Shown here: positions 1 to 15,132 of the stretch, one piece after another
Numbering within the stretch: the stretch's first letter is position 1
Layout of the letters: each line of letters starts with the position of its first letter
The notes under the pieces: generated by a model
What the model saw: only the letters and a program-made list of their open reading frames with translations
Database searches by the model: none
What the model was told of the DNA's origin: nothing
IMG/VR virus record: IMGVR_UViG_2627853771_000002
DNA from: a virus
Lineage: Duplodnaviria > Heunggongvirae > Uroviricota > Caudoviricetes
Reading direction: 5' to 3' (one strand)
DNA length: 15,132 bases
Translations under genes and position numbers: made by a program

Positions 1-798
1 TTAATGAACATTCGTCGCCGAAAACGAGTCTGTATCATTAGTGCGATGCAGTCTCTGCAAAGGATCTTGTTGATAAAATTGGCAGAAACGTTGCCACAAT
101 GAAGGGAAACGAGGAGCAAAAAGTTCTGGGGCGCTAAAGAAATATTCAGAAAGTACGGCAAAACATTCAGCAGGATCACTGGCAGCATAAGCATCAATGC
201 TCGCCGCATTCTCGCCAACCAATTCGATTTCTTCCTGAATGTTGTTCATTGCAGCATGAAGATCGTGTTCCCAGCCAGCAACCTCACGCAACGGAATAAA
301 GGGAACTCCGCTGGCGCGATCGCCGTTACGGGTGTCCAGCTTATGAGCGACTTCATGAATAATCAGGTTAAAACCAGAAGCATCAAAAGAATCTTGTATA
401 TCCAACCAGTTCAAAACGATAGGCCCTTGCTGCCAGCTCTGACCTGACTGAACAATACGTTGGTTATGCACCAGACCGATATCGTCTTCCCATTCATCAT
501 CGACCACAAATGGCGCAGGATAAATTAAGACTTCATGAAAACCATCCAGCCATTCCAGTCCTAACTCCAGAACGGGTAGGCAAAATAGAAGTGCTATCCG
601 GCAGCTTCTTAATGAATCCAGTTCAAAGCCCTGTAAAGGAACAAGCCGCTTTTGCTGTAAAAAACGTTCGGCAAGAGTGACTAATTTGCTTTGTTCCTGT
701 TCCGTCAGACCCGTTAAAAGGGGGATCGATAGTGCTTCCTGCCAGGGAAGGGCAGTTTGATGTGCTGATTCTTGTACTTTCCAGGGCCACTTAATCAT
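1..798 (-). CDS. mtfA: MtfA-like zinc-dependent peptidase (Mlc titration factor A), complete
   Basis: Minus-strand ORF 1..837; likely start is the ATG at 798-796 giving MIKWPWK..., stop TAA at 3-1. Contains an HExxH metallopeptidase motif (HEVAH). Sequence recalled as E. coli MtfA/YeeI; not searched. Confidence 0.85.
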
Positions 799-891
799 CG
801 TTTTGCTCGCAAACTCGTCACTTGAACAAAATTGCACGGACAGGGACTGTTAAAATGCCAAATTTCCTGGCATCATGGCAACCATCTGAAC

Positions 892-981
892 GGAGAGATG
901 CCGGAGCGGCTGAACGGACCGGTCTCGAAAACCGGAGTAGGGGCAACTCTACCGGGGGTTCAAATCCCCCTCTCTCCGCCA
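892..981 (+). tRNA. serU: tRNA-Ser, anticodon CGA
   Basis: GGAGAGA...TCTCTCC acceptor stem, discriminator G and terminal CCA; anticodon loop CUCGAAA gives anticodon CGA; long variable arm typical of class II tRNA-Ser; TTCAAATCC T-loop. Folded by eye. Confidence 0.9.
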
Positions 982-3891: not shown

Positions 3892-3946
3892 GGTGATGCT
3901 GCCAACTTACTGATTTAGTGTATGATGGTGTTTTTGAGGTGCTCCA

Positions 3947-4222
3947 GTGGCTTCTGTTTCTATCAGCTGTCCCTCCTGTTCAGCTACTGACGGGGTGGTG
4001 CGTAACGGCAAAAGCACCGCCGGACATCAGCGCTATCTCTGCTCTCACTGCCGTAAAACATGGCAACTGCAGTTCACTTACACCGCTTCTCAACCCGGTA
4101 CGCACCAGAAAATCATTGATATGGCCATGAATGGCGTTGGATGCCGGGCAACTGCCCGCATTATGGGCGTTGGCCTCAACACGATTTTACGTCACTTAAA
4201 AAACTCAGGCCGCAGTCGGTAA
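3947..4222 (+). CDS. insA: IS1 InsA
   Basis: 91-aa [43 protein letters not shown]..., recalled as IS1 InsA. Confidence 0.9.
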
Positions 4223-4644
4223 CCTCGCGCATACAGCCGGGCAGTGACGTCATCGTCTGCGCGGAAATGGACGAACAGTGGGGCTATGTCGGGGCTAAAT
4301 CGCGCCAGCGCTGGCTGTTTTACGCGTATGATAGTCTCCGGAAGACGGTTGTTGCGCACGTATTCGGTGAGCGCACTATGGCGACGCTGGGGCGTCTTAT
4401 GAGCCTGCTGTCACCCTTTGACGTGGTGATATGGATGACGGATGGCTGGCCGCTGTATGAATCCCGCCTGAAGGGAAAGCTGCACGTAATCAGCAAGCGA
4501 TATACGCAGCGAATTGAGCGGCATAACCTGAATCTGAGGCAGCACCTGGCACGGCTGGGACGGAAGTCGCTGTCGTTCTCAAAATCGGTGGAGCTGCATG
4601 ACAAAGTCATCGGGCATTATCTGAACATAAAACACTATCAATAA
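4141..4644 (+). CDS. insB: IS1 InsB (expressed as an InsAB' fusion by -1 frameshifting)
   Basis: 167-aa [28 protein letters not shown]... in the -1 frame relative to insA, overlapping its 3' end. Confidence 0.85.
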
Positions 4645-5769
4645 GTTGGAGTCATTACCTAAAGAATCAAGGATTAAACCTGAAATCCTTAATACATCCT
4701 CGGGATGTTCAATGAAAATACGATTGTTATCATGTTCAAGTCCGGCTCTTTTAATTTCATTACCGGTTATTTCATTGATATCAATTGGTAACTGTATGTT
4801 TGAGCGATTCTTCTTGTCATAATAGCGAACCAGCCAGCGGTTTGTTTTTCCTTGGAAAAGAATAGAGTAATAGGACTCTGTATCTTTGGCTTGAAGTTCG
4901 TATGCAGGGCCTATAATAGAACAGATTTTTTCAAATAAAATTCTTTCATTATAGGTTGTTACTATGTTGGGGTTCTCTGCATCGACAATATCTGCGCGCT
5001 CATCAATTACATTATTTTCAGTTACATCAGCAGGGGATTCTAATTCAGGAATAGATGTTCTTGATGAAAGACCAGAAACAACCATTTCACTTACTGACCT
5101 CTCTACGGCCTGCCTCACCAATGGAGTTATTGTTTCTATAAATCTTTGATTTAATTGACGACCAATATTTGCTCGTCCTGCAACATATCTAACAAATTCA
5201 TGATCTACTTCCCGAAGGCTTGTACTCACGACTTTAACAAATGCAGAAATATAAACACTCTCTTCTGCAAGGGTTCTTAGGGCCTCTGGTTTGAATTTGT
5301 CATGGCGGAATCTAAATAATTGCTCAGCATCAGAATCTTTAATGTCATCCATCATGATTCGTAAAAATGGCGTTGAATCCATTATATTTTTTTCATTGAG
5401 ATCCGTAAAAAAGCGCCATTCAATTCCATTAGTAATTGCTGATATTGTCACCTCAGGAGTAGAATTAAAATACCTAGATAATTGAGGACAATGGTTGTCC
5501 ATTTTTTCTTTACAACCTTTGGCCTCAATAAACATAACGGGAACACCTTGGCAGAATAGAGCATAATCTACACGCTCACCCACTTTCACACCAGGGAAGT
5601 CCGCACCATATTCAGCTTTGACTTTTTGCGGATCATATGCGTTAAAGCCTAGGATGTCCAAAAAAGGAAGTATCAAAGCCTGCTTGGTTGTCTCTTCCGT
5701 TGTGCAGTGTTCTCTAACATTTTTAACATGTTCAATGTGATTTTTAAGACGTACTTTGAAGTTTTCCAT
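4579..5769 (-). CDS. Repressor-linked protein with an HsdR-N-like PD-(D/E)xK nuclease N-terminal domain and an uncharacterised C-terminal domain; 3' end replaced by IS1 sequence
   Basis: ATG at 5769 (MENFKVRL...) after GGAGGA. The first 130 aa or so follow the pattern I associate with the type I restriction HsdR N-terminal nuclease fold (D...VDYALF...[10 protein letters not shown]...QLSRY...TNG). Codons 4660-5769 are native; 4579-4659 are read from the IS1 right end. Lies downstream of, and on the same strand as, the repressor gene, inside the operator-bounded immunity region. Confidence 0.6.
4660..4668. repeat. IS1 target-site duplication, right copy (TAAAGAATC)
   Basis: Identical to 3883-3891. 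Confidence 0.85.
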
Positions 5770-5939
5770 GCATCCTCCATGCAAAGTGAAAACCTGCTGT
5801 TAAATCAAAGCAAGTCACAATCCCGGATAGGCTTCATACAAGCCAATCCCCCACAGGGATTGAGTTATGCAAGCGAATCAATCTCAGAGCTTTTAACATG
5901 TATGGAGCTTAGAGATATTGTCCGTTAGACCATATAAGC

Positions 5940-8138: not shown

Positions 8139-8981
8139 ATGAAACTGACTTTACCATTTCCACCGAGCGTAAATAGTTACTGGCGCGCCCCGAGCAAGGG
8201 ACCGCTGAAAGGCAGGCATCTGGTAAGCGAGACAGGGCGCAAGTTCCAGCAGGCAGCGAGAGCGGCGATTATTGAGCAACTGCGGGCCGTTCCCCGGCCA
8301 TCCTCAGATCTGGCCGAGGTTCACATAAACGTTGTTGAGGGCGCGGGGCTTGAGCTTGATCCTGATGATGATTCACAGGTTCTTAAAGCGATTGGTGGCG
8401 GTCGCCTGCTTAATATTGTCACCTTTACTAAGTCAGGGACTTACACTCCAACTAAAGGGACGAAAAGAGTGCGGGTGAAAGTTTGGGGAGCGGGGGGAGG
8501 TGGCCAGAATGCTCCAGTTAGTGTGGGCGCATCTGGAGGTTGTGCTGGTGGATTTTCGGAAGGGTTATTTAATATTTCTGATAACGAAACTATATCTGTG
8601 ACGATAGGTACTGGTGGCAGTGCTGTTGCTGCTGGTGTCTCGTCTAAAGGCGGGAATGGTGGTGATACAAGGTTCGGGAGTTTAATCTCAGCTACTGGAG
8701 GGAGTGGTGGCGGGGCTACAGTTCCTGCTGGAGGTATCGGAAGTGGCGGGAACATTTTAAATATTACTGGCGAAATATCTCAAGGTGGTCTGTATTATGG
8801 TTCTGATGCTTTTATTGGCGGGGCTGGAGGATCTGCATTTTCATCAACGGGTGGCAATGGCCACTTCGGTAGTTCTGGCGATGATGGCGGTTTCCCCGGC
8901 TCAGGTGGTGCCGGGGGGAATGGTAACTATTCATCAGGAAAAGGAGCGAATGGTTTAGTTTACCTTGAAGAGTTTTCCTGA
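8139..8981 (+). CDS. RusA-like N-terminal region fused in frame to a glycine-rich, fibre-like C-terminal region
   Basis: N-terminus MKLTLPFPPSVNSYWR... resembles the RusA resolvase N-terminus (ITLPWPPSNNRYYR), and ...GGGRLLNIVTFT resembles the RusA C-terminus. From about aa 110 the protein is a GGxGG-rich tract of about 170 aa. ATG at 8139 follows AAGGGGG. Confidence 0.5.
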   Translation: MKLTLPFPPSVNSYWRAPSKGPLKGRHLVSETGRKFQQAARAAIIEQLRAVPRPSSDLAEVHINVVEGAGLELDPDDDSQVLKAIGGGRLLNIVTFTKSGTYTPTKGTKRVRVKVWGAGGGGQNAPVSVGASGGCAGGFSEGLFNISDNETISVTIGTGGSAVAAGVSSKGGNGGDTRFGSLISATGGSGGGATVPAGGIGSGGNILNITGEISQGGLYYGSDAFIGGAGGSAFSSTGGNGHFGSSGDDGGFPGSGGAGGNGNYSSGKGANGLVYLEEFS

Positions 8982-10051
8982 TTATTTTTGCTTTGAGCGT
9001 CCGCCCTTATTTTTGCTCTAATTTTAATTAGTGGCTTGTCTATTAATATTACACAAACGATCCCAAGTGCAATTGATATTGGGTAGCCTAATAAAAAGAT
9101 GGATAAGCCACGATTTTCACCACCAATAGCAAGCCATGCTAGAAATCCACCAAAATATTGACAAAGAAAAATTGGATAGGCCAGGTCACCAAACCACTTG
9201 AGTATTTTCTCAAGATGTATGTTTGTCTTTATTTTTAATAATACCAGGGTTGTAAACAATGCTATTACATTATTGGTGTAGTAAAGTATTATGTTGTACT
9301 GACCTAATGGATTAATTGTATATAAATGCCAATTGGTAATAAAAATCCCGATGCAAATAAATGTTATTAAAAAAGCTTTGTGTGGAGAAAGATACATAGC
9401 TTTGAACTTTCTATGGGCAAAATAACCCAGAGAACCCATGCTAAAAGGAAGTGTTGCAGCAAGGAATGGGAAATACGCCATATCAAAAGAATGGTGTACT
9501 ACATATACGTAAGCATGATAAAGCAGTGAAAGCAGAATCGACGTAATGGCTGTAAATTTATTTCGGGCTATGAAAAGCCACAATAAAAAATAACATGTTA
9601 TCTCAACACCCACTGACCATGATGATGTGACTATTCTGAATCTATTACCATCAATAGCAAAGTGATAAATGGATGAAAAGGCACCGAATGGATTTGCTAC
9701 AGCATTATCAGAAAGGAAAGCCCAGGGGAAGATTAAGAGGTTTCCTAATAAATCTCCAGGTAAGAAATTGCCTGTCCAGTTTGAGTGGAATTCCTTTGCG
9801 GATGGAATTAATTTTATAATAAGAAAGCCCATGACGAGAAAAAATATATATGCCGGGAATAACCTCAGTATTCTATTTTTCCAAAACATAGAGAAGTTGA
9901 ACTTGTATGTTTCATGCAAAATGTATGTTATTAAAAAACCACTAATAACATAGAAGCAATTCACTGCAAAGTTGCCAAGTGCAGGTATGCGAGCCGTTAA
10001 GTGAAAAGCAATGACGCACGATGCCAAAAAAAACCTTATTAGGCCAAGCAT
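8960..10051 (-). CDS. Acyltransferase-3 family integral membrane protein (O-antigen O-acetyltransferase-like, Oac/OafA type)
   Basis: 363-aa very hydrophobic ORF with motifs typical of the family (RFFLASCVIAFH, FYVISGFLITY); strongly AT-rich relative to its flanks. Its 3' end overlaps the convergent glycine-rich ORF by about 22 bp. Confidence 0.75.
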   Translation of the reverse strand: MLGLIRFFLASCVIAFHLTARIPALGNFAVNCFYVISGFLITYILHETYKFNFSMFWKNRILRLFPAYIFFLVMGFLIIKLIPSAKEFHSNWTGNFLPGDLLGNLLIFPWAFLSDNAVANPFGAFSSIYHFAIDGNRFRIVTSSWSVGVEITCYFLLWLFIARNKFTAITSILLSLLYHAYVYVVHHSFDMAYFPFLAATLPFSMGSLGYFAHRKFKAMYLSPHKAFLITFICIGIFITNWHLYTINPLGQYNIILYYTNNVIALFTTLVLLKIKTNIHLEKILKWFGDLAYPIFLCQYFGGFLAWLAIGGENRGLSIFLLGYPISIALGIVCVILIDKPLIKIRAKIRADAQSKNNQENSSR

Positions 10052-10314
10052 TATTTTATCTCCGCGCCAATATCGCGCATTTTATTTATTACATTGTTAA
10101 GTTGCTCATCAGACAGAACAAGCTGAGCTGCAATATAAAACAGTATGTGTCTTGACATTACCCTGGGGCTCTCTCCGCCAGTGTATTTCCGCCATTGGCT
10201 ATCGCTGGCTACACCTGCGAGCCCTGCCATTTGGTTTCCGGAGTAATTTAGTGCGGATTTCAGTCTGGCTAAATCTTCCTGCGTTGGAGGGGTGTATTTA
10301 TTTATTAAAATCAT
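10051..10314 (-). CDS. Small XRE-type HTH protein co-transcribed with the acyltransferase
   Basis: 87 aa from the ATG at 10314 (track ORF starts at a GTG at 10338). HTH-like segment LARLKSALNYSGNQMAGLAGVASDSQWRKYTGGESPR. Its stop overlaps the acyltransferase start (TAATG). Confidence 0.5.
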   Translation of the reverse strand: MILINKYTPPTQEDLARLKSALNYSGNQMAGLAGVASDSQWRKYTGGESPRVMSRHILFYIAAQLVLSDEQLNNVINKMRDIGAEIK

Positions 10315-10415
10315 TCTCTTATTTAACCGTTTAAACACGTAAGGCGATGTTAGCCCTGAAGGGGCGGGGCGTCAATCTTAATTGCTTCATTGAAAAGATG
10401 AAGACAGGAACAGGT

Positions 10416-12410
10416 ATGGACAAAAGATATAATACCGGCAATCCAAGACCTTCAAATAGCATGAAGGATCTGAATGATAACGCCCTGGCGTACGATGATT
10501 TCCTGAACAGCGAAAGCGATACTTTTATAGATCGTTTTGGTAACGCCCAGGATACGATAATTGGGGCTACTAAAAAAATGGCAGCTGCTACCGACGCTGT
10601 TATTGATGAAGCCCGCCAAAACCTGATCCCTCTCAGCCGGCAGTACATGACGCTGGCGGCGGCGCAGGCGGATATTGCGAATATTCCGGCAGGTTCAACA
10701 ACCTATGTCCGCAGTCAGGACGGAAGCTCTCTGGCCGATGAGTATATCAACCTCGCTGGAACGCTGCAGCCAACCGGACGGCGGATGGTTCGTGACGACT
10801 ACGCATACCAGGTATCGCCAGACAGCGTGACCCTGGCAGCATATGATCCGGAGACTTCCCGCGTGGCTCCATTTTTAAATACAAGCGGCAGATTAATTCA
10901 AATCGGTCCTGACGGAAAATATTACGAACTTTTAACCCAACAAGAATCCGAACTCTATGCGCTGGGCCGGGAGGGTTCTATACCGCAGTTTATTGGCGGT
11001 GAAAAAGTGTGGCGGATGACGGTTGATTCAACCACAAACCAGATCGTTGAAGCTTATACGGTTGGTGGGAAGCACTGGATTTACTCAGACGGTGGCCTGG
11101 TAGCTGTTAATAACGGAAATGGCGGTGGTGGTGGCGACGATGATGCCAACCAGCTCCCTGAGTATGGACTTCATTTGTCAGGGTCTACTGTGTACCCCTA
11201 CTCAGAGACAGTGCCTGTATGTTTTATCTTTGTGACTGCTGGGCAATCCAACGCTCGAGGATATTGTCCTGACGCCGATCAAACCATTGTCGCAGCAACG
11301 CCGATATATCCTGATAACGCTTTCATGCTCAGCGGCGGGGTTAGGCGTACAGGGACACGCAGCACTACTCTGGTGCCACTGGTTGAGGCAGTAAGTGGGA
11401 CAGATAAAGAAACGGCCGCAAGCGGCCTCGCGAACACCTTCATTCGCGATATGGCTGCAGCTACCGGAATCATGCCGCGCACGCTATCAATCGTATGTGC
11501 GCAGTCTGGTCAGGCTTACGAGTACCAGAAACGGGGTAACCAGGTATATCAGTATCTGCTCGATTCAATCGAAGACTGCGTAACGGCCTGTAAAGCACGC
11601 GGCTGGCTGCCGATTGTTCTCTGCGTTGACTGGATGCAGGGAGAGTCCGACGAGGACTGGTCAGGATTACGAGAAGGAATGTATGAATCACGGATGAGGC
11701 AGTACCAGAGACAAATCACCAGCGACATCATCGCAAGAACGGGTCAAAACGAACCGCCGATTATCGCCATTACCCAGCTGGGGTATGTCAATGACGGGCA
11801 TGGTGCATTTACAGGCCAGTACGCGCGACTGGCGTCGACGCGATTGCACGGAAAAGAGCAATTCAGGCTGGTCAATAGTTTGTACCAGTACGATTTTATT
11901 TCAGACGGTCTGCACTTGACGTGTGCGGGCCAGAACCGGCGCGGAGCAGCTGTGGCGAGAGCGCTTCTCCAGGAGTGGTTTACGAGCGGCTGGTCAGGGA
12001 TGGTTCCGACCAGTTTCGTGTGGAACTCACCCACGCAGATACAAATCAATGTCCCAGCGTATACGAACCTGGTGCTGGACACGACTACGATCAACACCTC
12101 CGGTCTGGCCAATTACGGCTTTAGCTACACGGATGAGACTGGTGCTCCACCTGCTATATCGAGCATCGCGATCAGCTCGGACGGCAAGGGCGTGCTGATT
12201 AACCTGGCGACCGCCCCCTCTGGACGTTTTGGGCGCGTTTCCTATGCGACAGCAGAAAACCCACTTCAGAGCGGCGCATCTGTAAAACCTTCCGGGCGGA
12301 CTCTTGGTGCAAGAGGGTGTGTTCGATCTTCCGCTGGAATCATATGGGTGTATGACACATCCGTGACTCTTTACGACTGGCTCCCCGCTTTTCGTATTAA
12401 CGTTTTCTGA
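10416..12410 (+). CDS. Tail-fibre/tailspike-like protein with an internal SGNH/SASA-type carbohydrate esterase domain
   Basis: Esterase block motifs in order: GQSN (VTAGQSNARGY, nt about 11241-11252), QGESD (DWMQGESDED, nt about 11631-11651) and DxxH (SDGLHLT, nt about 11904-11918). A Gly/Asp linker (NGNGGGGGDDD) precedes the domain. Start taken as the ATG at 10416 (AGGAACAGG upstream); the maximal ORF begins at 10347. Confidence 0.55.
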   Translation: MDKRYNTGNPRPSNSMKDLNDNALAYDDFLNSESDTFIDRFGNAQDTIIGATKKMAAATDAVIDEARQNLIPLSRQYMTLAAAQADIANIPAGSTTYVRSQDGSSLADEYINLAGTLQPTGRRMVRDDYAYQVSPDSVTLAAYDPETSRVAPFLNTSGRLIQIGPDGKYYELLTQQESELYALGREGSIPQFIGGEKVWRMTVDSTTNQIVEAYTVGGKHWIYSDGGLVAVNNGNGGGGGDDDANQLPEYGLHLSGSTVYPYSETVPVCFIFVTAGQSNARGYCPDADQTIVAATPIYPDNAFMLSGGVRRTGTRSTTLVPLVEAVSGTDKETAASGLANTFIRDMAAATGIMPRTLSIVCAQSGQAYEYQKRGNQVYQYLLDSIEDCVTACKARGWLPIVLCVDWMQGESDEDWSGLREGMYESRMRQYQRQITSDIIARTGQNEPPIIAITQLGYVNDGHGAFTGQYARLASTRLHGKEQFRLVNSLYQYDFISDGLHLTCAGQNRRGAAVARALLQEWFTSGWSGMVPTSFVWNSPTQIQINVPAYTNLVLDTTTINTSGLANYGFSYTDETGAPPAISSIAISSDGKGVLINLATAPSGRFGRVSYATAENPLQSGASVKPSGRTLGARGCVRSSAGIIWVYDTSVTLYDWLPAFRINVF

Positions 12411-12419
12411 GGATAAAAA

Positions 12420-13220
12420 ATGAGACTGATTTACACACTAACTGGACTGAATAACCCCTTACTCCCTGTGTACTCACAAACAGCGGCAGAGAAAGCGATC
12501 TCAGAACTATCCCCATCAGTATGGACACCAGTGAAGACAGAGTTTCTAAAAATGGGGTCTGGTGCAAAAGTAGTAGCTATCTCTAACCGATTAGATGGCG
12601 GACTTTTCAAGTCACTGGAGACCCTCGAGCCATCCACAAAGCTGAATGGTTCTGTTTTGCAGGGGCTTAATTTCTCCGGTGCATCCGGCATGGCTGGTGA
12701 TACGGCGGTGGTTATGGACGCAAACATCAATACTTTTGCATTCATCTATCAGCTGCCAGGTGGGGCGCTTCCGGCTACGCCACAGGACAGAGCGGTTATC
12801 GCAACCCAGGAAAGCACACCTCATGGCGTCGGCATTCGTACAACGTCAGCAGGTTCATTCCCGATTTTTCTGAATGGAGGGATCGAGGCCGATCTGGCAT
12901 TTACTCCTAACAATATAGGGCAATCTTTATTCTGCGCTGTAGTTATGTGCTCTAACAAGGCTGCTGGATCCTATGCAATTGCATACCAGCGGTCAGATCA
13001 GTCTGCAGTGACCAGCCGACAAGTGACGGGCTATACAATCCCAGCGTATAGCCCGTCTCAAAAAATGAGTATTGGCGGAGCAGGCAATGGTTCAGTGTCT
13101 CCGTTAACATCCGTTTTGTCAGAATGTTTGGTTTTCCCCGGCAAATATGCATATGGGACCAGCACACTGGATGTCATCCTGGCATATCTGATGGAGAGGA
13201 TTGGAAAAATCACGGCCTAG
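12420..13220 (+). CDS. Hypothetical 266-aa protein co-transcribed with the fibre/esterase gene (possible fibre partner or assembly protein)
   Basis: ATG at 12420 lies 6 nt after GAGGA and 9 bp after the upstream stop. No recognisable motif. Confidence 0.5.
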   Translation: MRLIYTLTGLNNPLLPVYSQTAAEKAISELSPSVWTPVKTEFLKMGSGAKVVAISNRLDGGLFKSLETLEPSTKLNGSVLQGLNFSGASGMAGDTAVVMDANINTFAFIYQLPGGALPATPQDRAVIATQESTPHGVGIRTTSAGSFPIFLNGGIEADLAFTPNNIGQSLFCAVVMCSNKAAGSYAIAYQRSDQSAVTSRQVTGYTIPAYSPSQKMSIGGAGNGSVSPLTSVLSECLVFPGKYAYGTSTLDVILAYLMERIGKITA

Positions 13221-13254
13221 AATTTGCCGAATGCATCCGAGTCGGTCCGCAGCG

Positions 13255-13413
13255 ATGGAGCAGGAGAGAGTCGGCGGCCGCCGCCGGATAATGACTGAAG
13301 AAGTGGTGGAGCGGTGCCGCAGAATGCTGGAGAACGGCGCTACCCGGCAGCAGGTGGCTGATGTGACAGGCGTGGACGTGAAAACAATCTACAAGTACCT
13401 CCCGGCGACTTGA
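13255..13413 (+). pseudogene. 3' fragment of a serine DNA invertase gene (Hin/Gin/Pin-type C-terminal HTH only)
   Basis: ...GGRRRIMTEEVVERCRRMLENGATRQQVADVTGVDVKTIYKYLPAT-stop resembles the C-terminal HTH of Hin/Gin/Pin invertases; no catalytic N-terminal domain precedes it, because the upstream sequence is the end of the 266-aa gene. Confidence 0.55.
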
Positions 13414-13490
13414 AGGCAAAGATTTCACTACTTTTCCTGATATGTTACGTTTGGCTTAATCAATTCATTCAGCTTTGAAAACAGTTTGGT

Positions 13491-13913
13491 TTGTTCGTGA
13501 ACGGTAAGAAAACAATAAGTTTTGAGCAATTTTTAACTATTAACAGCAATCTTGTTTCCATCTCAGATACATGGGCTGACTTGTGGGCGTTAATTTTTCA
13601 CACGGGTTTAAGCGCTGGAAGGCTGCTGAGTATTCGATATGATGATATTGATGGTGACTTGATACTGATACGAAAACAGGGTCACCTGAAGGAGCTACGT
13701 GTTAAATCAACCCCTCCAGTGGAGGGGATCATTGCTCGTAGAAGAGAACGCTATCCAGAAGATGTTTTTTTATTTCAGAGCCATTCTAACCGTGTGAAGT
13801 ACCAATGCCGGCCGGTCACTATAATTGCTTTCAACGCCGCTTTACGTCGCGCCGCTAGATCATTACCAGACGTTAACGTAAGCAGTAGTAGCGCGAGAAA
13901 CATACCGGACTAA
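13491..13913 (+). pseudogene. FimB/FimE-like small tyrosine recombinase remnant, C-terminally truncated and degenerate
   Basis: Box-I-like region LWALIFHTGLSAGRLLSIRYDDIDGDLILIRKQG parallels FimB/FimE, but the catalytic Arg position is Ser and the His/Arg/Tyr C-terminal motifs are absent. No ATG start (TTG/GTG only). Confidence 0.4.
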
Positions 13914-13931
13914 CCGCCTGTCCAGTCGCGT

Positions 13932-13985
13932 GTGGCCGATGTGACAGGCGTGGGGGTGAAGACTATTTACAAATATTTGCCAGTA
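13932..13985 (+). repeat. Second diverged copy of the invertase 3'-end segment
   Basis: gtggccgatgtgacaggcgtgggggtgaagactatttacaaatatttgccagta encodes VADVTGVGVKTIYKYLPV; most differences from copy 1 are synonymous. In frame with ORF 13491-13913 but separated from it by a TAA. Confidence 0.5.
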
Positions 13986-14003
13986 CAATACGGCGATAAA
14001 AAC

Positions 14004-14029
14004 CCCCTTGAGCAGGCACACTCAAGGGG
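14004..14029 (-). terminator. Hairpin with a T-run on the minus strand; possible terminator for leftward transcription
   Basis: CCCCTTGAG (14004-14012), 8-nt loop, CTCAAGGGG (14021-14029); the preceding plus-strand AAAAA is a T-run after the hairpin on the minus strand. Confidence 0.3.
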
Positions 14030-14140
14030 AAAATACTACATAACATCATTGCTGTGTGCGTCTTTGCGCTCGTCTATCTTCCAAGAATATGCCTAAAGCT
14101 TCCAGATATTTCTGGTCTGAGCTGTTACATCATGGAGTAG

Positions 14141-14198
14141 GTGCCGATGTGATAGGTTAAGAGCGAAGATGATCTGTAAGTACCTTCCGACGTCGAGG
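14141..14198 (+). repeat. Third, more degenerate copy of the invertase 3'-end segment
   Basis: gtgccgatgtgataggttaagagcgaagatgatctgtaagtaccttccgacgtcgagg aligns with copy 1 (gtggctgatgtgacaggc...aaaacaatctacaagtacctcccggcgact). Confidence 0.35.
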
Positions 14199-14533
14199 GG
14201 CAATGACCATGAATTTGGGTCTATACCATCCCAATTCATATATTCTTTGTAAGTCTATGAAATATAGAGCAAAGTATTCTGTTCGAAATGAACCATATGG
14301 AATAGCCAAAGGCTAAAATGCCCAGAGTAAAAACAACAATCAGCAAGTCCGTCTGTGACATCTTATATCCATTTTGCAGTAGCAGGTTTTGAGAAAAGAT
14401 AGTTCATAGTTGGCACATAGACAACATAATCACTAAGTGAAACCAATATCAGAGGCTAAAAGGTGACTGGTTTCCTCCTCAGTGTTCCTGATTGATAGCT
14501 GGAACCTGTATTGATCAGATCTCTTAATGAATC

Positions 14534-14553
14534 TACTGTATATAAAAACAGTA
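14534..14553 (+). promoter_or_regulatory. LexA (SOS) box overlapping a promoter
   Basis: TACTGTATATAAAAACAGTA matches the E. coli consensus TACTG(TA)5CAGTA at 18 of 20 positions (CTGT-N8-ACAG intact). A possible -35 TTGATC lies at 14510-14515. Confidence 0.75.
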
Positions 14554-14571
14554 TTTTCGGGAGGTGAAGTT

Positions 14572-14730
14572 ATGCCGCGAAACTCAGATATCGAAATAGC
14601 CTGGCGTCAGGCAATTGTCATTGAGCCTAATGGCCGTCGCACCGTGACAACGTCCGGTTTTATCCGGGAACTCGCAAAAGTTAACTGGATATGGTCACCG
14701 CGCCAGGCTAACCAGTGGATAGAGCACTGA
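14572..14730 (+). CDS. Small hypothetical protein (52 aa) immediately downstream of the LexA box
   Basis: ATG at 14572 lies 7 nt after GGGAGG; translation MPRNSDIEIAWRQAIVIEPNGRRTVTTSGFIRELAKVNWIWSPRQANQWIEH; stop 9 bp before the UmuD-like start. No family recognised. Confidence 0.45.
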   Translation: MPRNSDIEIAWRQAIVIEPNGRRTVTTSGFIRELAKVNWIWSPRQANQWIEH

Positions 14731-14739
14731 CATTCCGGG

Positions 14740-15132
14740 ATGTCTCAACGCAGGAAGGCGATGAGCTCACGTTCCAGTTATACAACCCAAACGGAGGGCT
14801 ATAACGTGGGATTTCCGTCGCCAGCTGCTGACTATGTTGAACGGCGTCTGACCGTTGATTCACTCTGCGGTACCGGCCCCAATACTCGGATAGTACAAAC
14901 AGAAACCGGCTATGCCGTAGTGGATTGCTTCGTAAAACCAAAGCAAGGAGATACCGTTTTAATTCAATACGGCGGCGGCACTGATTTTGCAAAAATTATG
15001 GGCCGGGCATTTATTACACGAGACGGTGAAGCGTTGGAAGGTGAGGCCCTGGATGATGTTACAGTTGTCGGGGTAGTGACATTCGTTATCAATCGGATAG
15101 GGAAGGATGATGATGATTATCCAGTAATATGA
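14740..15132 (+). CDS. UmuD-like (peptidase S24-like) protein, apparently lacking the catalytic serine and the Cys/Ala-Gly cleavage site
   Basis: GFPSPAADYVERR matches the conserved UmuD/MucA/RumA segment and the C-terminus (DDVTVVGVVTFVI) matches UmuD (LDVFGVVIHVV). Where those proteins have GDSM/GSSM, this one has GYAV, and VG replaces CG/AG before FPSPAADY. An alternative start is the ATG at 14761 (AGGAAGG upstream). The stop TGA at 15130-15132 overlaps an ATG at 15129. Confidence 0.7.
   Translation: MSQRRKAMSSRSSYTTQTEGYNVGFPSPAADYVERRLTVDSLCGTGPNTRIVQTETGYAVVDCFVKPKQGDTVLIQYGGGTDFAKIMGRAFITRDGEALEGEALDDVTVVGVVTFVINRIGKDDDDYPVI

Follow-up and report, generated by a model that had tools for sequence, protein, structure and literature searches.

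Phage fibres with esterase domains of the SGNH or SASA type are well documented. In 2026 they were placed among the commonest receptor-binding proteins of Klebsiella prophages, and one of them, the SASA (PF03629) prophage fibre 164_08-KL2 (WP_232162347.1), hydrolyses p-nitrophenyl acetate (pNPA); the same study also discusses how acetylation and deacetylation interact in these prophages (PMC13123978). Another example is gp63.1 of phage G7C, an SGNH esterase tailspike which, as summarised in two sources, deacetylates the E. coli 4s O-antigen, removing O-acetyl groups without depolymerising the chain in a step required for infection (PMC13123978; bioRxiv 10.1101/2021.06.09.447823). For the Serratia phage BZS1 (vB_SspM_BZS1), the proteins p27 and p28 were found in virions by mass spectrometry, and in 2020 its authors put forward the idea of a deacetylase used for entry together with an acetylase directed against superinfection (PMC7556043). 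Finally, proteins of the AT3 family, to which phage O-antigen acetyltransferases such as Sf6 Oac belong, have been described with R/K-X10-H and RXXR motifs (PMC9558356).

The window analysed here, that is, the whole stretch of 15,132 nucleotides, represents an E. coli HS-type chromosome with a prophage remnant of about 13.7 kb at a tRNA-Ser gene. In the RefSeq annotation of the identical locus this tRNA-Ser lies between mtfA and the integrase. The features discussed below are the following, with the basis of the assignment in brackets.

892..981, plus strand: tRNA-Ser (CGA) on the attachment-site side of the remnant (ARAGORN)
8139..8981, plus strand: chimeric ORF, RusA N-terminus joined to the C-terminus (218 aa) of a short glycine-rich tail fibre
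8960..10051, minus strand: AT3-only O-acyltransferase, 363 aa (Pfam, PHROG, GC, motifs)
10051..10338, minus strand: small XRE-like protein, 87-95 aa (87 if counted from the Met at 10311), which heads the AT3 operon
10347..10375, minus strand: candidate promoter, TTGACG-17-TAACAT, directed towards the XRE/AT3 operon (consensus scan)
10416..12410, plus strand: predicted receptor-binding tail fibre with SASA/SGNH esterase domain (PHROG 4201, Pfam SASA, RefSeq start)
10416..10787, plus strand: N-terminal anchor domain, common to fibres with at least 32 distal parts
11226..11972, plus strand: SASA/SGNH esterase domain (Pfam, motif alignment, profile against PDB)
11973..12407, plus strand: C-terminal beta-rich region (similarity to BZS1 p27 through aa 602)
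12420..13220, plus strand: 266-aa partner protein, found after this esterase subtype in all loci examined
about 13249..13413, plus strand: Hin/invertase C-terminal HTH fragment, a relic (RefSeq pseudogene, HTH_7)

The gene order can be compared directly with p23-p28 of BZS1 (MT843275; PMC7556043). Common to both is the succession of a Mu-like baseplate, a short fibre and the antisense pair of AT3 and XRE-like gene, continued by a PF03629 tail fibre, a small downstream protein and an integrase or attachment site. The BZS1 protein p25, annotated as 'XRE family transcriptional regulator', is 67% identical to the XRE-like protein of the window. The first ~40 aa of p27 and of the window fibre are nearly identical, and their esterase and C-terminal parts share 26% identity (E 6e-7). 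The two AT3s are related at family level only, a further small transmembrane ORF (p26) occurs in BZS1 and not in the window, and p28 has no significant similarity to the 266-aa protein although both are positional analogues. Moreover, BZS1 is an intact, inducible phage, whereas the element in the window is without virion genes. The author of the earlier note had not seen the pairing of a deacetylating fibre with an acetyltransferase described as a module; since BZS1 shows the same synteny and the deacetylase/acetylase idea was published with it in 2020 (PMC7556043), novelty of the pairing is not supported.

The anchor of 164_08-KL2 is 60% identical to that of the window fibre over aa 21-124, and in both proteins a spacer and a PF03629 domain with GQS follow; however, the two esterase domains belong to different subfamilies, and in a pairwise comparison with 399 aa of 164_08-KL2 significant similarity was confined to the anchor. 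The window copy resides in a degraded E. coli prophage, while 164_08-KL2 stems from a K. pneumoniae prophage, the same host range as the homologues of the window fibre. G7C gp63.1, likened here by its description, is also a receptor-binding protein with an SGNH-type esterase, but G7C is a lytic N4-like podovirus. The window AT3 in turn resembles Sf6 Oac and other AT3-only O-antigen acetyltransferases of phages (PMC9558356) in its length of ~360 aa, the R/K-X10-H and RXXR motifs and a position antisense to structural genes near the prophage end. Close sequence similarity is lacking, and tblastn against 50,697 phage records gave only three matches, with 25-28% identity.

The longest reading frame of the fibre gene extends over 687 codons (10347-12410, plus strand). 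Translation likely starts at the ATG at 10416, which gives 664 aa; this start is favoured by the RefSeq call, an upstream AGGA and the length of the homologues (653-663 aa). RefSeq lists the protein as WP_001565623.1 with the product name 'sialate O-acetylesterase'. It matches PHROG 4201 'tail fiber protein' (E 1.3e-66), and hundreds of homologues with 80-93% identity exist in Klebsiella, overwhelmingly in K. pneumoniae. The proposal that the frame encodes a fibre with an embedded SGNH/SASA esterase domain is borne out by the Pfam match to SASA (PF03629; E 1.8e-11, 44.6 bits at a gathering cut-off of 24.8 bits), which covers aa 294-542 of the 687-aa reading and positions 4-226 of the 226 model positions. 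The three motifs follow each other in the order given in the earlier note: GQSN at nt 11241-11252 (aa 276-279 of the 664-aa reading, with the Ser as S278, or S301 in the 687-aa reading), QGESD at nt 11637-11651 (aa 408-412 of the 664-aa reading) and DGLH at nt 11904-11915 (D497/H500 in the 664-aa or D520/H523 in the 687-aa reading).

These motifs fall on the conserved blocks of the family. When nine esterase domains from fibres, mutually 17-29% identical, are aligned, the only invariant columns are G-Q-S, the Gly within QGE and the His, and the motifs of the window fibre map exactly there; the Asp of the DGLH block is kept in most of the sequences. Judged from this alignment, the catalytic-type residues of the domain are intact. 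A profile built from the nine domains matched the solved SASA/SGNH esterases 2apj (1.5e-9) and 1zmb (2.3e-4) in the PDB, and also 9vyh_m (1.4e-17), a solved structure from a phage with the name 'Tail spike protein'. In this comparison the GQSN of the fibre aligns with GQSN of both esterases, and the counterparts of its QGESD and DGLH blocks in 2apj are WYQGESD and SDNLH. A single-sequence phmmer search of the fibre against the PDB returned nothing significant, with matches to AAC(3) only (E >= 0.12), and an AlphaFold2 model of the full-length fibre, with a shallow alignment of 27 sequences at 76-92% identity, reached a pLDDT of 37.9, too low to be of use. The SGNH fold gains support only indirectly, through profile homology to solved structures. 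By analogy with characterised relatives, the fibre most likely has the predicted acetyl-esterase activity. A comparison of fibre, AT3, XRE-like protein and 266-aa protein with NCBIfam gave no match for any of them.

The RefSeq product name might suggest a nutritional enzyme like NanS-p, a sialate O-acetylesterase that helps the host to use O-acetylated sialic acids from mucus. The fibre does share PF03629 and a RefSeq-style product name with NanS and NanS-p, and weak profile matches to NanS (3pt5, E 0.55) and to a sialic acid acetylesterase (8f9q, E 0.31) were obtained. However, the match to NanS lacks significance and the phage tail spike is much closer, the product name comes from the Pfam family and not from an assay, and, different from NanS, the protein begins with a phage fibre anchor of 125 aa and its gene always ends tail modules. 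We regard a role in sialic acid use as very improbable. A secreted enzyme was also considered and rejected, as no signal peptide-like N-terminus is visible in the fibre sequence.

The anchor links the protein to a large set of phage fibres. A homologue search with the 124-aa anchor yielded fragments from contig ends only and no domain architectures; a scan of viral contigs was used instead and found 552 anchor relatives in IMG/VR. The best 80 of these 552 carry at least 32 distal clusters, among them SASA, GDSL, CotH, Peptidase_M14, BNR_4, GH43-like and unknown types. Related fibres have frequently undergone mosaic exchange at the boundary of the anchor. The C-terminal beta-rich region has no Pfam match; because it is conserved together with the esterase domain, it may represent a carbohydrate-binding or trimerisation part. 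In intact relatives the esterase fibre gene follows a lambda-type gpJ, a Baseplate_J cluster or a Mu gp47/48 baseplate with a short fibre, and it occurs among the tail fibre genes of the lytic Vequintavirinae phage AV124 as well. The earlier note had placed the gene where a lambdoid tail fibre gene would be; in intact relatives the gene ends the tail module, and in the window itself the preceding tail genes have been deleted. Domain composition and genomic context support the reading of the gene product as a tail-fibre or receptor-binding protein of a phage, with a SASA/SGNH esterase domain embedded in it. By analogy with BZS1 p27, it is a putative virion protein.

Directly downstream, the 266-aa protein accompanies the esterase fibre in 15/15 related loci (L001-L015) at 68-100% identity. 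It has no Pfam, PHROG or NCBIfam match, only two full-length clusters at 50% identity contain it among 1.84 billion proteins, and its AlphaFold2 model, with a pLDDT of 29.0, is likewise of no use. The esterase subtype and this partner move as a unit among lambda-like, Mu-like-tailed and lytic Vequintavirinae phages in two genera. Further downstream, the invertase remnant mentioned in the earlier note corresponds to the HTH_7 fragment at about 13249-13413. HTH_7 is present at the equivalent position in Klebsiella prophages, and in phage ST846-OXA48phi9.2 the equivalent piece, likewise a fragment, is annotated as 'Hin recombinase'. An invertible cassette around the fibre genes in the manner of the Mu G segment was rejected because only short imperfect inverted repeats with 73-89% complementarity were found and the Hin fragment is already a relic in related intact phages.

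On the other side of the fibre gene lies the AT3 operon. The AT3 matches Acyl_transf_3 (PF01757, E 2e-15) and PHROG 3333 'O-acetyltransferase' (E 5.8e-22), and its translation shows R6-X10-H17 and R-I-L-R motifs; a scan of genome contigs with the AT3 gave only one weak, irrelevant match. The XRE-like protein matches PHROG 20491 (E 3.3e-30). The fibre had been described as adjacent to the acetyltransferase. This is correct in so far as the divergent AT3 operon adjoins it, but AT3 and fibre are separated by the XRE-like gene (10051-10338, minus strand). The promoter-like site facing the operon is a candidate only, since such sites are not more numerous in the region than expected from shuffled sequence, and the consensus scan found no plus-strand promoter-like site at 10339-10415 upstream of the fibre gene. 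Lysogenic-conversion genes often sit antisense among phage structural genes. The GC content of the AT3 cassette is 32-38% compared with 50-55% in the flanks, as would be expected of an independently acquired moron; AT3 and XRE-like gene are a separate low-GC cassette, placed antisense between two fibre genes. In the lysogen the AT3 probably O-acetylates a surface glycan.

The central question is whether AT3 and esterase fibre are coupled, as proposed in the earlier note for a module of writer and eraser, in which the AT3 acetylates the sugar position that the fibre esterase clears, so that the lysogen excludes rivals while its own virions pass. The adjacency does recur in E. coli, in K. pneumoniae (L012) and in Serratia phage BZS1, and the idea is stated in PMC7556043 and compatible with the discussion in PMC13123978. 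Furthermore, out of 10 AT3-adjacent fibre clusters, 6 have a demonstrable SASA or GDSL domain and 2 more carry SGNH-like motifs. The distal domain of the L032/L035 type (GWGHS...GRNN...DGLHPS) was counted at 'motif-level' only, because hhalign against the GDSL and SASA profiles is too shallow, even for GDSL against SASA. However, esterases are equally common in same-anchor fibre clusters without a nearby AT3, namely 12-14/22 compared with 6-8/10 beside an AT3 (Fisher p 1.0 and 0.44). One nearly invariant AT3 type (98-100% identical) is found beside at least 7 distal fibre domains, including SASA, GDSL and TolB-like ones and the non-esterase CotH, which would not be predicted for matched specificities. 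Vice versa, the window-type esterase fibre mostly occurs without an AT3 within flanks of 5-10 kb, and six other AT3 types sit antisense beside fibres with the same anchor. The composition of the AT3 that differs from its flanks and the merely family-level relation between the AT3s of the window and BZS1 also speak against a module. Co-inheritance or co-variation of AT3 and esterase fibre was hence not found among the swapped fibres, the AT3-less loci and the cluster counts; the two genes assort independently, their pairing looks like a coincidence of position, and functional coupling is not supported. We consider the coupled module unlikely.

The state of the remnant bears on what the fibre could still do. 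The chimeric ORF matches PHROG 34 (RusA) with aa 1-63 and PHROG 863 (tail) with aa 81-280, and the ORF also matches Pfam Gly_rich_2 (E 5.6e-11). Its residues 63-280 are 98% identical to a fibre of 261 aa encoded after Mu gp48 in L012, an intact prophage of K. pneumoniae (GCA_052319555.1). The rusA::fibre fusion marks the deletion of the lysis, head and tail genes, and the RefSeq annotation of the identical locus contains no virion genes between integrase and attR. Because these genes were lost by deletion, the window copy of the fibre is unable to build its own particle, and the entry specificity ascribed to this element falls away. In the intact prophage L012 the same block of fibre, antisense AT3 and XRE-like gene, esterase fibre and small protein is found. 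The genes rusA, Hin and umuD nearby in the remnant are broken.

It might be possible that the relic has kept a residual use, with the AT3 retained for modification of the host surface and the fibre genes serving as a recombination reservoir for phages. In 15 E. coli genomes the ORFs for fibre, 266-aa protein and AT3 are unbroken and 100% identical, while rusA, Hin and umuD are broken. Active Klebsiella prophage families share the right arm of the remnant, with 95-99% identity between the proteins, and the frequent exchange at the anchor boundary would permit such a reservoir role. The complete identity of the 15 copies, however, gives no selection signal either way; it fits recent common descent, and retained function is also compatible with it. 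The lack of a plus-strand promoter-like site at 10339-10415 counts against this reading. A residual use thus appears possible, though doubtful.

As a whole, the locus is with good probability best explained as a receptor-binding esterase fibre from a temperate phage of Klebsiella/E. coli, stranded in a decayed prophage beside a separate AT3 moron. According to this explanation, the N-terminal anchor (~125 aa) would dock the fibre to the tail tip or baseplate of the virion, and phages of different types can exchange it. Distal to the anchor lies an SGNH esterase of the SASA type, whose predicted centre is Ser-His(-Asp) (S278, H500, D497 in the 664-aa reading), and then the C-terminal beta-rich domain; the downstream gene encodes the conserved 266-aa partner. 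In analogy to the characterised esterase fibres, the protein would most likely strip O-acetyl groups from capsule or O-antigen as its putative substrate during adsorption without cutting the chain. The copy in the window is a passenger in the decayed prophage at tRNA-Ser, of no use to its own phage.

The fibre represents a further subtype of common, recently validated deacetylating receptor-binding proteins and adds very little that is new in this respect. RefSeq gives the name 'sialate O-acetylesterase' to hundreds of proteins from Klebsiella and E. coli; these are phage fibres, and the name probably misleads. Our comparison puts the published idea of acetylase and deacetylase coupling to a first test, on a small scale, and its outcome was negative with regard to co-inheritance. 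Alternatively, AT3 and fibre esterase might still share one O-acetyl mark, with the several esterase families beside the one invariant AT3 acting as alternative erasers on different glycan backbones. We regard this as quite unlikely; if true, lysogens would shut out competing phages by acetylating a capsule or O-antigen receptor, while virions of their own lineage with a matching eraser would still adsorb. Finally, because the esterase subtype and its 266-aa partner travel as a unit across phage types, they would be a convenient candidate for the identification of the substrate.

The esterase fibre gene lies in a decayed prophage of ~13.7 kb in the E. coli chromosome, the bounds of which, a tRNA fragment and yodB, were taken from the annotation of an identical locus. 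Ahead of the chimera listed below, the remnant encodes an integrase, a ParB-like protein, IS1, an HSDR_N endonuclease, RacR, cro/ydaS-like and cII/ymfL-like products and a Dam methylase.

Selected features of the window
1-837, minus strand: mtfA
892-981, plus strand: tRNA-Ser, beside mtfA
8139-8981, plus strand: in-frame chimera of RusA residues 1-63 and residues 63-280 of short-fibre origin
8960-10051, minus strand: AT3 acyltransferase gene, after the chimera
10051-10338, minus strand: small XRE-like gene, between AT3 and the esterase fibre
10347-12410, plus strand: esterase fibre reading frame
11241-11252, plus strand: GQSN motif in the fibre frame
11637-11651, plus strand: QGESD motif in the fibre frame
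11904-11915, plus strand: DGLH motif in the fibre frame
12420-13220, plus strand: 266-aa reading frame, after the esterase fibre
~13249-13413, plus strand: Hin HTH fragment
right arm, within 13249-15132, after the Hin fragment: 140-aa reading frame, then broken (frameshifted) umuD

Residues 63-280 of the chimera correspond to the last 218 aa of a short, glycine-rich tail fibre; RefSeq annotates only the rusA portion, as a pseudogene. Therefore, one deletion spanning rusA to the fibre removed the lysis, head and tail genes. In L012, a K. pneumoniae contig with an intact prophage, a Mu-like tail and baseplate module is complete and is followed by precisely the gene block of the window: the glycine-rich fibre, AT3 in antisense, the XRE-like gene, the esterase (687-aa frame) and its 266-aa partner. 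The window derives from an L012-like phage by deletion. Its fibre copy cannot be used by any virion of its own element, and the entry specificity that had been proposed for this element is irrelevant here, because the prophage is gutted. Of 5,426 complete E. coli genomes, just 9 contain the whole window at ≥80% coverage and 15 contain the AT3/esterase pair; the segment from AT3 to the fibre (8960-12410) is 100% identical to E. coli strain HS.

Further rearrangements are visible in the remnant. The IS1 transposase frame (4141-4644) overlaps the end of the HSDR_N endonuclease-like frame (4579-5784, minus strand), and in other E. coli strains, remnants that are otherwise identical have ISKpn26 or IS3-family elements at ~3900-5784 instead, so this region is an insertion hot spot. 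The right arm (13249-15132), in which the 140-aa frame has weak integrase-like similarity, matches lambda-like Klebsiella prophages at 95-97%, where Hin is likewise a mere fragment; on the left, short fibre, AT3 and XRE-like gene resemble those of Mu-like-tailed phages. By these similarities the remnant is itself a mosaic, joined in or close to the fibre gene.

The 687-residue frame of the fibre was confirmed, with ATG 10416 as likely start giving a protein of 664 aa: an AGGA stands a few bases 5' of it, RefSeq starts the identical protein there (WP_001565623.1, 'sialate O-acetylesterase'), and the majority of the homologues have 653-663 aa. Residues 294-542 of the 687-aa reading align with the entire Pfam SASA model (PF03629; E 1.8e-11; 44.6 bits against a cut-off of 24.8), and aa 67-687 match PHROG 4201, 'tail fiber protein' (E 1.3e-66). 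Nine more PHROG families of very different lengths match the first ~150 aa, as expected if the anchor, the ~125-aa N-terminal domain, is shared. Iterative HMM searches, with IMG/VR fibres bearing the same anchor as comparison set, found a related domain in nine fibre clusters with 17-29% identity to the window protein; invariant in their alignment are G-Q-S, the G of QGE, one G in T-G-Q and the His of D-x-x-H. Among solved structures, the alignment profile best matched a phage 'Tail spike protein' (9vyh_m, 745 aa, E 1.4e-17), followed by two SASA-family esterases, 2apj (1.5e-9) and 1zmb (2.3e-4), in which all three motif blocks align; matches of the same profile to sialic acid acetylesterase and NanS were insignificant. 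PDB 9vyh chain m is thus the nearest solved structure in the profile search. The AlphaFold2 model of the fibre reached a pLDDT of 37.9 with input sequences all >76% identical. Motif conservation and profile matches make the predicted membership in the SASA family and the catalytic-type residues well supported at the level of sequence, and the esterase domain recognized in the earlier note was borne out.

This fibre belongs to an already known class of esterase-bearing fibres, and activity of this member is predicted. In the Serratia phage vB_SspM_BZS1 the genes stand in the same order: Mup43-48, short fibre p23, antisense AT3 p24 and XRE p25, a small ORF p26, the PF03629 tail fibre p27, p28, and an attachment site with integrase. 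The XRE-like proteins are 67% identical; the fibres share their first ~40 aa, and the esterase and C-terminal part are 26% identical. Both p27 and p28 were detected in virions by mass spectrometry, and the authors speculated that p27 deacetylates O-antigen for entry and that p24 acetylates it in lysogens, guarding against superinfection (PMC7556043). Recently, SGNH-domain fibres were ranked among the most prevalent receptor-binding proteins of K. pneumoniae prophages. Two such fibres were active on p-nitrophenyl acetate, hydrolysing it; acetyltransferase genes occur in 5-30% of prophages per K-locus, and the authors discuss the interplay of acetylation and deacetylation (Otwinowska et al., PLoS Biol 2026; PMC13123978). 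Among the tested proteins, 164_08-KL2 is a SASA fibre (PF03629; PMC13123978, supplement), the anchor of which is 60% identical to the window fibre over aa 21-124. Therefore class, activity and pairing idea are all already published, and the pairing is not new as a module, given the same synteny and the same acetylase/deacetylase proposal for BZS1 (PMC7556043).

Fibre homologues with 80-93% identity are very abundant in K. pneumoniae, and the esterase gene and its 266-aa partner move jointly across several tail contexts: directly 3' of a lambda-type gpJ, with the Hin fragment and the 140-aa frame, in K. pneumoniae prophages; 3' of an 825-aa tail protein; 3' of Baseplate_J clusters in one E. coli prophage and Klebsiella phage ST16-OXA48phi5.2; and, in the lytic Vequintavirinae phage AV124, amid tail fibre genes. 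The partner stands 3' of this esterase subtype in all contexts examined, a strict linkage in lambda-like, Mu-like-tailed and Vequintavirinae phages. It had no match in Pfam, PHROG or NCBIfam and is a near-orphan, with only 22 clusters at 90% identity and two full-length clusters at 50% identity (HMMER, 1.84 billion representatives); its AlphaFold2 model has a pLDDT of 29. By position it is the counterpart of the virion protein BZS1 p28, to which it has no significant similarity. Obvious guesses at its role are a distal subunit of the fibre or an assembly factor. Its C-terminus (…MSIGGAGNGSV…LSECLVFPG…) gives the impression, and only that, of the end of a lectin/LamG-type domain.

The AT3 product, 363 aa long, is an AT3-only protein (Pfam 2e-15) and contains the motifs R6-X10-H17 and R-I-L-R; both motifs (R/K-X10-H, RXXR) are functionally important in AT3 proteins (PMC9558356). 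No close relatives were found among 50,697 phage records. A candidate promoter-like site (10375-10347, minus strand) faces the XRE/AT3 operon, in a region where the number of such sites is no higher than the shuffled expectation. Homologues of the XRE-like protein (50-67% identical; L108 6001-6273, L109 4483-4767, L110 4492-4776) occur in temperate phages of Serratia, Bordetella and Burkholderia, heading antisense cargo (AT3, a 250-aa SGNH/GDSL protein or hypothetical proteins) that lies between genes for tail fibres, lysis and integrase. The protein may regulate moron cassettes in general.

The anchor itself carries an unusually broad range of distal domains beyond esterases among the IMG/VR loci L028-L107: Peptidase_M14 carboxypeptidase (L055), CotH kinase (L092), BNR_4 (L060), GH43-like (L088, L077) and alpha/beta-hydrolase-like (L073) domains, and several types without annotation in fibres of 900-1370 aa. 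Another type, labelled 'TolB family protein' in RefSeq, combines a TolB-like beta-propeller with a C-terminal GWGHS…GRNN…DGLHPS domain (L023 2714-4822 and L026 1375-3285, both minus strand; also L032, L035, L039, L064, L082); by its motifs this domain looks like an SGNH hydrolase missed by Pfam.

The remaining question is whether AT3 and esterase form a functional unit, writer and eraser of the same surface modification. With AT3 as query, 11 IMG/VR loci with 98-100% identity were retrieved, which hardly differ in the block made up of the glycine-rich fibre, AT3 and the XRE-like gene. In 10 of the 11, a fibre that shares the anchor (81-100% identical) comes next; the contig of L018 ends before it. 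The distal part of this fibre is exchanged: three SASA types occur (that of the window, a distant one with 26% identity and one with a Pfam match at 1.8e-6), besides a GDSL type (Pfam 5e-10) and two related TolB-like propeller types with SGNH resemblance at motif level only. Complete E. coli genomes add a CotH-kinase-type fibre and several unannotated fibres to the neighbours of this AT3. AT3 genes next to fibres are both frequent and diverse: an antisense AT3 adjoins the fibre in at least 16 of the best 80 IMG/VR anchor loci (10 of the window type, 6 of other AT3 types, all Pfam-confirmed), such counts being lower bounds because contig ends cut the flanks. SASA/GDSL esterases make up 6 of 10 fibre clusters with adjacent AT3 (8 including motif-only types) and 12 of the 22 clusters for which the ±5 kb retrieved on either side of each fibre match contained no AT3 (14 including motif-only types); in this small sample there is no enrichment (Fisher p 1.0 and 0.44). 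Moreover, the AT3 cassette has a GC content of 32-38% against a background of 50-55%. A functional unit is thus unsupported; a shared substrate specificity may exist, but nothing in these data argues for it. Collectively, the fixed AT3 beside a changing fibre, the varied AT3s, the base rate and the GC content mark AT3 as a moron that was acquired on its own at a preferred insertion site, and show that in the fibre family of this anchor esterase domains are frequent in any case.
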